Source: Escherichia coli (GTDB lineage Bacteria; Pseudomonadota; Gammaproteobacteria; Enterobacterales; Enterobacteriaceae). Taken from it: a stretch of 38,787 nucleotides of DNA. The DNA is taken from the NCBI RefSeq assembly GCF_003334385.1, contig NZ_QOWN01000040.1; one strand, given 5' to 3'. Shown one piece after another: positions 1 through 3,000 of the stretch (positions within the stretch are counted from its first letter, which is position 1; each line of letters begins with the position of its first letter). The position numbers are program-made.

Positions 1-3000
1 ATGTTCCCCGGTGAGAACCCAGATTGCTGTAACTTCCGTCAGGTGCACCAATCGTTCGCCACACACCGGATTGGCACAGAGACATTGCATTTCTGATTCA
101 GTATTCCTACCTTCCTCGGATTTATCGTGGAAGGCAGATATGTTTCGAAAAATAAAAATTCGCAAAATGACTCTCAACCGGGCGCTGGACAAATACCTGA
201 AGACAGTATCCATCCACAAAAAAGGTCATCTGCAGGAGTTTTATCGCGTCAATGTGATTAAACGTCACCCTATGGCCGAGCGCTATATGGATGAAATCAC
301 CACCGTTGATATCGCCACTTACCGGGATCAGCGTTTGGCTCAAATTAACCCACGAACAGGGCGTCAAATCACCGGAAACACCGTCCGTCTTGAACTTGCT
401 CTTTTATCATCATTATTCAATATCGCCAGTGTGGAATGGGGGACATGCCGTATGAATCCTGTTGAACTGGTCCGAAAACCCAAAATCAGTAGTGGACGCG
501 ATCGTCGCCTGACTTCTGGCGAAGAACGCCGACTCTCCCGCTATTTCAGAGATAAAAATCAGCAGCTCTACGTTATCTTCCATCTGGCCCTGGAAACAGC
601 AATGCGACAGGGGGAAATCCTCACATTACGCTGGGAACACCTCGATTTGCAGCACGGAGTGGCGCATCTTCCTGAAACGAAAAATGGTTTACCACGCGAT
701 GTCCCACTCTCCCGGAAAGCTCGCAACTACCTGCAAATTCTGCCACAACAGATAAACGGCAATGTGTTCAGTTACACCTCATCCGGTTTCAAAAGCGCCT
801 GGCGTACCGCACTTCTGGACCTGAAAATAGAAAATCTGCATTTTCACGATCTCCGTCATGAAGCCATCAGCCGATTTTTCGAACTTGGTACATTGAATGT
901 CATTGAAGTTGCCGCTATTTCAGGCCACCGCTCCCTGAACATGTTAAAACGGTACACGCATCTCCGGGCATATCAGCTGGTCAGCAAACTCGATGCCAGG
1001 CGTAAACAGACCAGCAAAATTTCCCCTTATTTTGTTCCCTACCCTGCAACTGTCGGGTGCAGAAACGGGCTGTTTGTCGTGACACTGCACGATTTCGACC
1101 TTGAAACCCGTGCAGAAACCCGGGAACTGGCTATATCTCATGCCAGCGTATTGTTGCTGCGCACACTGGCACAGGCGGCTCAGCGGGGTGAACGCGTTCC
1201 CACGCCAGGCGAGCTACCCGCAAACATTGATGAACGGGTCATGATTTGTCCGTTAACAAACTGAAGGCATATCAGAATGAAAATCAACTTTTGCTTCCGG
1301 GTTAAATTAATCACGGTCATCCTGTCCGAATCCTTTTCATTCGCCCTTAAAACAGAGTTGCAAACACTCTTGAAACACACTCGATCATAACGATCGAAAT
1401 AACTCGCTTCCGTTTAAAAAACACTCTCTTTAGACTCAATTTATGAACAAAACACGCTGACCCGCATGGAGGTGAAATGAAAACTGACAGCACAGGTATT
1501 GCCGCCCGTATGATGCTCTCCCTGGACAGGGAGCGAATTTGCGAATGCCTGCTCAGTCATCGCCAGCTGCAGTCCACACCCCTGCAGGTTCGTTATCCGC
1601 AGGGAGTCAGGGATGCCCTTGGTATCATGAGCGAACAGCTTTCTCTTTCCGTCTCTGACCTGACGCGTATCCTGGTCGAAGACGCGTTAAGTGAAATGTT
1701 TCTTCCTGCAGATAACATCGTCCGCCGTCTTCTCAGCAGGATGGAGCACATCATGCAGGCACATGATATCAGCGCAACAACGATGGCTGCATTACTGGCC
1801 CCCTGGAATATCCGCCCTGCCGTCTTCCGGGAGCCGGACAGACTCACTGACTATCTGACCGGGGAGATTCTTGCAGCACTGGCTGACTGGTTTTATCTCA
1901 GTCCGGAATGGCTGAACGGCAGGGTGCATTATCCACTGTATCGTCCGGGAGACTGGCCAGCCACACAGGAGATATTCTGCAGGATTATTTCAGCCCGCGA
2001 GAATATGGACATTATTCTCTGGCATGGTTTTCCGTTTGCCGGAACGCATTCCGGAGAATATTGCGGCGTTCTGCTCAGGCAGAAAAAAGAAATTAATAAC
2101 ACCATTATTTATCCGGTACTTTCGTTATATCCGGTCAGAATGGATATAGAAAAAGAAGGCTGGTTTCAGATGGCCCGAAAAATATCTCCGGATATCCCTG
2201 TTCGCGCCGTAACACTCACTCCGGCACAGGCAGAATATCTGATAACAGGAAAAATATTACCCACTGCGTTATTCAGGGTTCCGTTATCCCCCTGGTAATA
2301 ATACTGAGCAATAAACCGGAATAATACACCAACTGTTTTTAATGGCACAGCCGTGCCCTCTATTGTTATACCCAAAATACCTCAATACAGGAAACTGAAA
2401 TGATGATGAAAAAGCATATTACCCGTACTCTCATCGCGTCTGCCGTTTTATTTTCCTTTAATTCGACTGCAGCAACGTCATATTTTGAAGCCCGCAATGA
2501 TGCGATGGGAGGAACGGGGGTTGCCTCCTCTCACTATGGTGTGGCCCCACTGGCAAACCCGGCACTGCTGACAAAATCCGGTGCAAAAGATGACTTCAGT
2601 CTTCTGCTTCCGTCCGTGGGTGCGCAGCTGTCCGATCCGGGTAATATCGCCGACAACGCCGACAAAATCAGCGATGACTGGAAAGCCTTCGACCGTGCCG
2701 TCGACAGCCACTCCGGGGTACCGCAGACAGCGGCCCGCCTGAAAGAGAGACTGCAGGACTTCCGGAACACCCATGCCAGCGCACAGGCCGGGGTATCTGC
2801 TGTGGCGGCCCTTCCCGGTGATACCCTCGCTGCTGCACTGATGCTGAAAACGTTCGGGACTGTCAGCGTCGACGGTAAAGTCAGCGATGCCGACCTGAAC
2901 TATCTGGAAAGCATTGCAGACAGTGGCAGCCAGGATGTGGATAAAAACAGACTGACCTCACAGGCTTTTGCCCGTGCCGCACTGATCACCGATGTGGGCG

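Follow-up and report, generated by a model that had tools for sequence, protein, structure and literature searches.

Positions 1..1264 of the window, by which we mean the entire 38,787-nucleotide stretch of Escherichia coli DNA analysed here, very likely (probability roughly 0.93) come from a pCT-like conjugative plasmid (IncK-type, I-complex) and form the rci-proximal end of its PilV shufflon. All testable defining features of an Rci/sfx shufflon were found: an asymmetric sfx site with core, conserved right arm and non-conserved left arm at 59..89, an Rci-type tyrosine recombinase that carries the R-K-H-R-H-Y catalytic set together with an extra C-terminal domain, and segments that encode alternative PilV C-termini in frame through the sfx site. 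The locus comprises the following features.

1..70, minus strand: end of an invertible shufflon segment; its PilV C-terminal cassette is of the A type and the same as that of pCT at 6077(-) in the pCT record (L001)
59..89, minus strand: full 31-bp sfx site, the outermost fixed site on the rci side
59..70, minus strand: sfx right arm TCCGGTGTGTGG, of the 'repeat-g' type (anatomy from PMC4176322 and PMC11852207; name from PMC5350095)
71..77, minus strand: 7-bp sfx core GTGCCAA, where strands are exchanged and mobile DNA meets fixed DNA (PMC4176322, PMC5350095; comparison of six isoforms)
78..89, minus strand: sfx left arm tgcaatgtctct, the fixed rci-side arm, identical in L001, L002 and L004-L007 whatever cassette adjoins
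140..1264, plus strand: rci, a shufflon-specific tyrosine recombinase of 374 aa (homology to the pCT and R64 Rci; PF00589)
Rci residues R156, K181, H236, R239, H263 and Y272: catalytic residues (alignment with HP1 integrase, 1aih)
Rci residues about 290-374: Rci-specific C-terminal domain (included in the 75% identity to R64 Rci)

The closest characterised relative is pCT (IncK; NC_014477 / FN868832), with a sequence from 2011 and functional work from 2014 (Cottell et al. 2011, 2014). Over window positions 1-1500 the two are 99.9% identical, with a single mismatch. Matches to the same 1500 nt were obtained in 955 plasmids (213 with an identity of at least 99%), of which 946 are typed conjugative, and in 633 of the 5,426 complete genomes of E. 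coli. The gene order in pCT and its relatives is pilQ-pilR-pilS-pilT-pilU-pilV, the shufflon, and then rci-traE-traF-traH-traI-traJ, with which the window is collinear from rci onward. The genes of the window itself begin with rci, continue with tra and trb genes and finish with one of the DsbC family, with no pil gene among them, and every near-identical plasmid examined has pilV, three to five more alternating sfx sites and pilQ-pilU directly upstream. The earlier expectation that the thin-pilus genes and the other shufflon sites lie just beyond the window edge is in this way borne out by comparison with relatives, and indirectly by the manner in which the contig breaks. The site count is six in pCT (alternating, bounding three segments), four in pJKHS006_1 and seven in R64; the window itself holds only the outermost copy, and the multi-site architecture is read from the relatives. 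Typing was consulted for two relatives, which gave IncI-gamma/K1 for pCT and IncK2/Z for CP088870, both MPF_I I-complex plasmids. The window backbone is IncI1/K-like with MPF_I tra/trb genes, and since near-identical relatives are typed both IncI-gamma/K1 and IncK2/Z, the class that the window would support is only that of a 'pCT-like I-complex transfer backbone'.

Comparison of six of these plasmids (L001, L002 and L004-L007), whose rci-traF region shares 99.8-99.9% identity with that of the window, revealed six different segment orders and orientations, built from two or three segments with four or six sfx sites. The pilV-side left arm ggcaatactttc and the rci-side left arm are constant in 6/6 plasmids, the right arm, including its three variable bases, stays with its cassette in all six, and the flanks of the core assort independently among the isoforms. 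Because the left arms are fixed while the right arms move with the cassettes, the exchange point lies inside GTGCCAA, in agreement with the literature. The cassette DNA found at the window start occurs at different positions in these plasmids.

The general anatomy of sfx sites, a variable 12-bp left arm, the 7-bp core GTGCCAA and a conserved 12-bp right arm TCCGGTNNNTGG, is well described and is exemplified by sfx101, with left arm ggcaatactttc, core gtgccaa and right arm tccggtacgtgg (PMC4176322, PMC11852207, PMC5350095). Strands are exchanged within the core (PMC4176322, PMC5350095), and the gtg variant of the right arm has been named 'repeat-g' in IncK2 plasmids (PMC5350095). In the window, the exact 19-bp Rci repeat GTGCCAATCCGGTgtgTGG is present at 59..77 on the minus strand. 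The preliminary description had claimed a match to the Rci site consensus at 58..77 on that strand, and the sequence from 77 to 58, GTGCCAATCCGGTGTGTGGC, reads exactly as claimed. The 19-nt consensus GTGCCAATCCGGTNNNTGG has this single exact occurrence in the 38.8-kb window, and the exact motif (16 specified bases) appeared in 0/100 dinucleotide-preserving shuffles of the window. When 2-3 mismatches were permitted, sfx-like motifs were not above chance in the window versus its shuffles; only the exact match at 59..77 is therefore counted, and an additional match at 15651 with 3 mismatches was dismissed as noise at this level. We also considered splitting the repeat into a 12-bp right arm GTGCCAATCCGG and a 7-bp spacer TNNNTGG, and ruled this out, since both the literature and the isoform comparison place the core at GTGCCAA.

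The gene next to this site encodes a protein of 374 aa that matches Phage_integrase (PF00589, E 1.4e-22). HP1 integrase (1aih), the sole return of a PDB sequence search with Rci, served only to place the catalytic residues: those of HP1 align with R156, H236-x-x-R239, H263 and Y272, and K181 lies in the expected hairpin. R64 Rci is 75% identical to the window protein over residues 6-372, C-terminal domain included, a domain of a kind that ordinary tyrosine recombinases do not have. A scan against NCBIfam returned only weak XerC/XerA matches, far below cut-offs; this collection has no Rci-specific model, so that membership among the shufflon recombinases rests on the R64 comparison. The pCT enzyme differs at one residue, R287 in the window and K in pCT, as a result of the single nucleotide difference noted above, and the published pCT rci PCR primers (PMC3377399) match window positions 222..239 and 1149..1166, giving the published 945-bp product. 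The initial proposal that an sfx-type repeat abuts rci was thus borne out, with a genuine sfx site at 59..89 and an adjoining gene whose product is one residue away from pCT Rci. On the plus strand upstream of rci, a simple promoter scan returned no promoter-like site, and two minus-strand matches were at chance level; read-through from the pil operon is a plausible candidate route for rci transcription.

That an sfx-like motif might merely happen to lie near an unrelated phage-type integrase, for instance an integrase with its attachment site, is a reading we consider to have a negligible probability. The chance-level behaviour of the motif at 2-3 mismatches and the purely generic tyrosine recombinase matches in NCBIfam would be compatible with it, but the 16 specified bases were never recovered exactly from shuffled sequence, the region is 99.9% identical to characterised shufflon plasmids, the enzyme shares 75% identity with R64 Rci, and the flanking 58 nt are a known PilV cassette. 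The identity to pCT, the cassette match, the isoforms, the R64 Rci identity and the pilV junctions described below together refute it.

No stop codon interrupts the rci frame between positions 2 and 1264, and in this the earlier observation that it stays open upstream to the window edge was accurate. The openness is nevertheless incidental and carries no significance, because the stretch is the antisense of the cassette ORF plus the sfx site, because the same frame is equally open for 40-113 codons upstream of rci in all six isoforms whichever cassette adjoins, each with in-frame starts (in pCT the opening ends 75 codons upstream of the ATG), and because R64 and window Rci share the same N-terminal point. 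An N-terminally extended Rci, with a start codon such as GTG 11 within the invertible segment, would make the recombinase vary with the shufflon state, and the stop-free frame with its in-frame start codons in every isoform would allow for it. Such a product is extremely unlikely: residue 5 of R64 Rci aligns with residue 6 of the ATG-140 product, so that the N-termini coincide, the RefSeq annotation starts rci at ATG 140, GGAAGG lies 7-12 nt upstream of this ATG, the upstream stretch is accounted for as antisense of cassette and site, and 46 open codons would arise by chance with p ~ 0.1 by our own estimate, (61/64)^46. We rejected the extended protein and take ATG 140 as the homologous start.

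On the other side of the core, the DNA encodes part of a PilV C-terminus. Read on the minus strand from 76 to 2, the PilV frame passes through the core and gives the first 25 codons of a 116-aa A-type cassette, which is identical in pCT and, at full length, 67% identical to the R64 PilV-A cassette; the first 77 nt of the window are 100% identical to a normal cassette end. The pilV constant region ends in ...GGCAATACTTTCGTGCCAA, and we built a 177-nt query for the predicted junction from 100 nt of this constant region, the core and the window cassette. In at least 13 plasmids the whole query was recovered at 100% identity, within genes annotated as pilV: of the 15 matches listed, 13 run full-length in a single piece, and 40 records reach a query coverage of 80% or more. 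As the junction sits inside annotated pilV genes, the A-type cassette is expressed in other isoforms; here it is parked next to rci and is silent in this orientation, because it faces rci and is not joined to pilV. The suggestion that an alternative PilV C-terminus is encoded on the left of the site is thus supported by both the in-frame codons and the fusion of the same DNA to pilV elsewhere. Positions 1..57 had been proposed as the end of an invertible segment; the identification holds, and the extent was slightly short. With the core at 71..77 and the right arm at 59..70 travelling with the segment, the mobile DNA covers 1..70, with its boundary within 71..77 (thus up to 77).

The two ends of the window point to the way in which it was assembled. 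Its first 77 nt consist of cassette, right arm and core and stop precisely where the core gives way to the left arm, the limit of the mobile DNA. Its last 77 nt (38711..38787) coincide with the terminus of an IS3-family element that recurs at 100% identity in unrelated plasmids, one of which (L008) is typed IncFIB, and the match to the I-complex backbone ends at 38710. Because both ends carry exactly 77 nt shared with other contexts, the window is probably a complete k=77 short-read (de Bruijn-graph) contig broken at the sfx crossover point, in which case reads led from the 77-mer that closes with the core into more than one sequence. The contig start would then be explained by an assembly-graph break at the recombination core, and shufflons are a documented cause of assembly breaks (PMC5430464; also Brouwer et al. 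2015, as cited in PMC5350095). From the 77-nt overlaps at the contig ends we infer inversion in this sample, with several shufflon isoforms coexisting in the culture; two co-resident I-complex plasmids that share the cassette would produce the same pattern and are a less likely source of it. At 38710/38711 the IS3-family end interrupts the 3' end of the DsbC-family gene (region 38256..38726).

The same boundary bears on whether the shufflon is a relic, frozen after its upstream part was truncated or reduced by deletion or IS insertion, in which case no shuffling would take place and the contig break would have some other cause. A break exactly between core and left arm with a k-mer-length overlap is what one expects if the reads extend the cassette end in more than one way, the first 77 nt are those of a normal cassette end without a single difference, and rci is intact and one residue away from the pCT enzyme, whose knockout has a phenotype (PMC4083329). 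We therefore regard a relic as unlikely, although there is only one sfx site in the window, related IncK2 plasmids with as few as two sites have been described (PMC5350095), inactive shufflons have been reported among pCT relatives (PMC3377399), and the close relative pJKHS006_1 has only four sites.

In an active pCT-like shufflon, Rci would bind the conserved right arm of each asymmetric 31-bp sfx site, as known from the literature, exchange strands within GTGCCAA and invert the DNA between any two inverted sfx sites, and the two or three segments between the pilV constant part and rci would in this way be re-ordered and flipped. Whichever cassette is joined to the pilV constant region would become the C-terminus of the thin-pilus tip adhesin PilV, and this C-terminus, judging from the literature on R64 and on the pCT rci knockout, would decide which recipients a liquid mating can reach. 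In the window, the site at 59..89 is the outermost fixed sfx site, with the A-type cassette parked beside it in a silent orientation. Work on R64 has shown that its recipient specificity in liquid mating depends on the PilV C-terminus that the shufflon selects (summarised in PMC11852207 and PMC5350095). For pCT, the authors' own assembly contained the shufflon region in multiple forms (PMC3377399), inactivation of rci reduced transfer when the recipient was Salmonella and left transfer to E. coli undiminished, and inactivation of pilS lowered liquid transfer to both recipients (PMC4083329).

Comparison with known systems places the window closest to pCT, which shares its rci-proximal junction, composed of left arm tgcaatgtctct, repeat-g and the A-type cassette, as well as traE, traF, traH, traI and traJ downstream. 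Unlike the window, pCT carries ISEcp1-blaCTX-M-14 after traK (L001 12415..13500), where the window appears to have no such insertion; at other positions the window contains an IS3-family insertion and a rare accessory insert. The IncI1 plasmid R64, studied by Komano and co-workers, with segments A-D (record used: NC_005014), has the same core, right-arm consensus and pilV-side left arm ggcaatactttc as the relatives of the window plasmid, and the same order pilV-shufflon-rci-traE-traF with pilV and rci in the same direction. It differs in having four segments and seven sites, as against two or three segments and four or six sites in those relatives, in its rci-side left arm, ttctctgcaagc instead of tgcaatgtctct, and in lacking the gtg right-arm variant (repeat-g). 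In addition, IncK-type plasmids pair the A-type cassette with a cassette containing a tail-collar domain, where R64 has the unrelated A'. Publications on IncK/IncK2 plasmids, or public records, already show these departures from R64. The partner cassette in pCT, at the other end of the segment to which window positions 1..77 belong (L001 5331..5720), encodes 129 aa beginning CQSGVWVGFESYP..., matches the Phage Tail Collar domain (PF07484, E 1.1e-13), and is labelled by PGAP as an incomplete phage tail protein.

More distant systems follow a similar logic. IncI2 shufflons (R721, TP114, mcr-1 plasmids) share the principle and the core, and their backbone and Rci are expected to be more distant from those of the window. 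Plasmids of ~60-64 kb, which we presume from their size to be IncI2, match a pCT shufflon query (L001 4200-6140) piecewise, at 89-93% DNA identity and with 50-73% of the query covered. The tail-fibre switches of the serine invertases Gin, Cin, Hin and Min also swap C-terminal receptor-binding cassettes by DNA inversion, and do so with an unrelated class of enzyme, the serine recombinases, a different site, and an enhancer with Fis. The likeness extends to a Phage Tail Collar domain, which one IncK cassette carries.

The fixed rci-side left arm (78..89) also contains an ATG, at 85..83 on the minus strand, in frame with the sfx core, and as a result the parked cassette always forms an ORF starting M-S-L-CQSG.... 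The R64 rci-side left arm differs in having no ATG. In pCT this ORF is annotated as a 119-aa hypothetical protein, and hypothetical proteins are annotated in relatives as well. A promoter-like site at 177..149 on the minus strand points into the ORF, with a match at chance level, and no obvious ribosome-binding site was seen for it. It is very unlikely, in our view, that translation of the parked cassette yields a small protein of its own, such as a putative soluble receptor-binding domain whose identity would vary with the shufflon state.

Several other genes of the window deserve mention. A 514-aa ORF at 31687..33231 on the minus strand, within about 31400..33950, has a Sulfatase domain (PF00884, E 1.2e-38), a weak EptA_B_N match, and NCBIfam matches to the CptA/EptA and MCR-4/5/7/8 phosphoethanolamine transferases, all far below cut-offs. 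Its DNA is covered by 1 of 72,556 PLSDB plasmids, pJKHS006_1 (NZ_CP147067.1), at 96.8% identity, where the counterpart is annotated as a phosphoethanolamine transferase (putative); the region is a rare accessory insert adjoining the hok/gef (pnd) region. At 27908..29494 on the plus strand, a protein of 528 aa has a sigma-70 region-4-like segment at residues ~130-200 and, at residues ~330-440, a TnsA-like endonuclease N-terminal domain. We take this protein to be the 'putative sigma factor' of pCT. Knockout of the pCT putative sigma factor gave no phenotype (PMC4083329). At about 6130..7580, where pCT has ISEcp1, the window has a 193-aa ORF (6648..7229) followed by a 1341-aa LPD7-domain protein, and it appears to be without the ISEcp1/blaCTX-M-14 resistance insertion of pCT.

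The locus is essentially that of pCT, and its shufflon, recombinase, site anatomy and repeat variant have already been published, so that little is added to the biology of these plasmids. The value lies in annotation: the window can be read as a transfer-region contig of a pCT-like I-complex plasmid, with the pil operon and the remaining cassettes on other contigs, probably short or mis-joined, and differences confined to the shufflon region should not be counted when such plasmids are compared in epidemiology.
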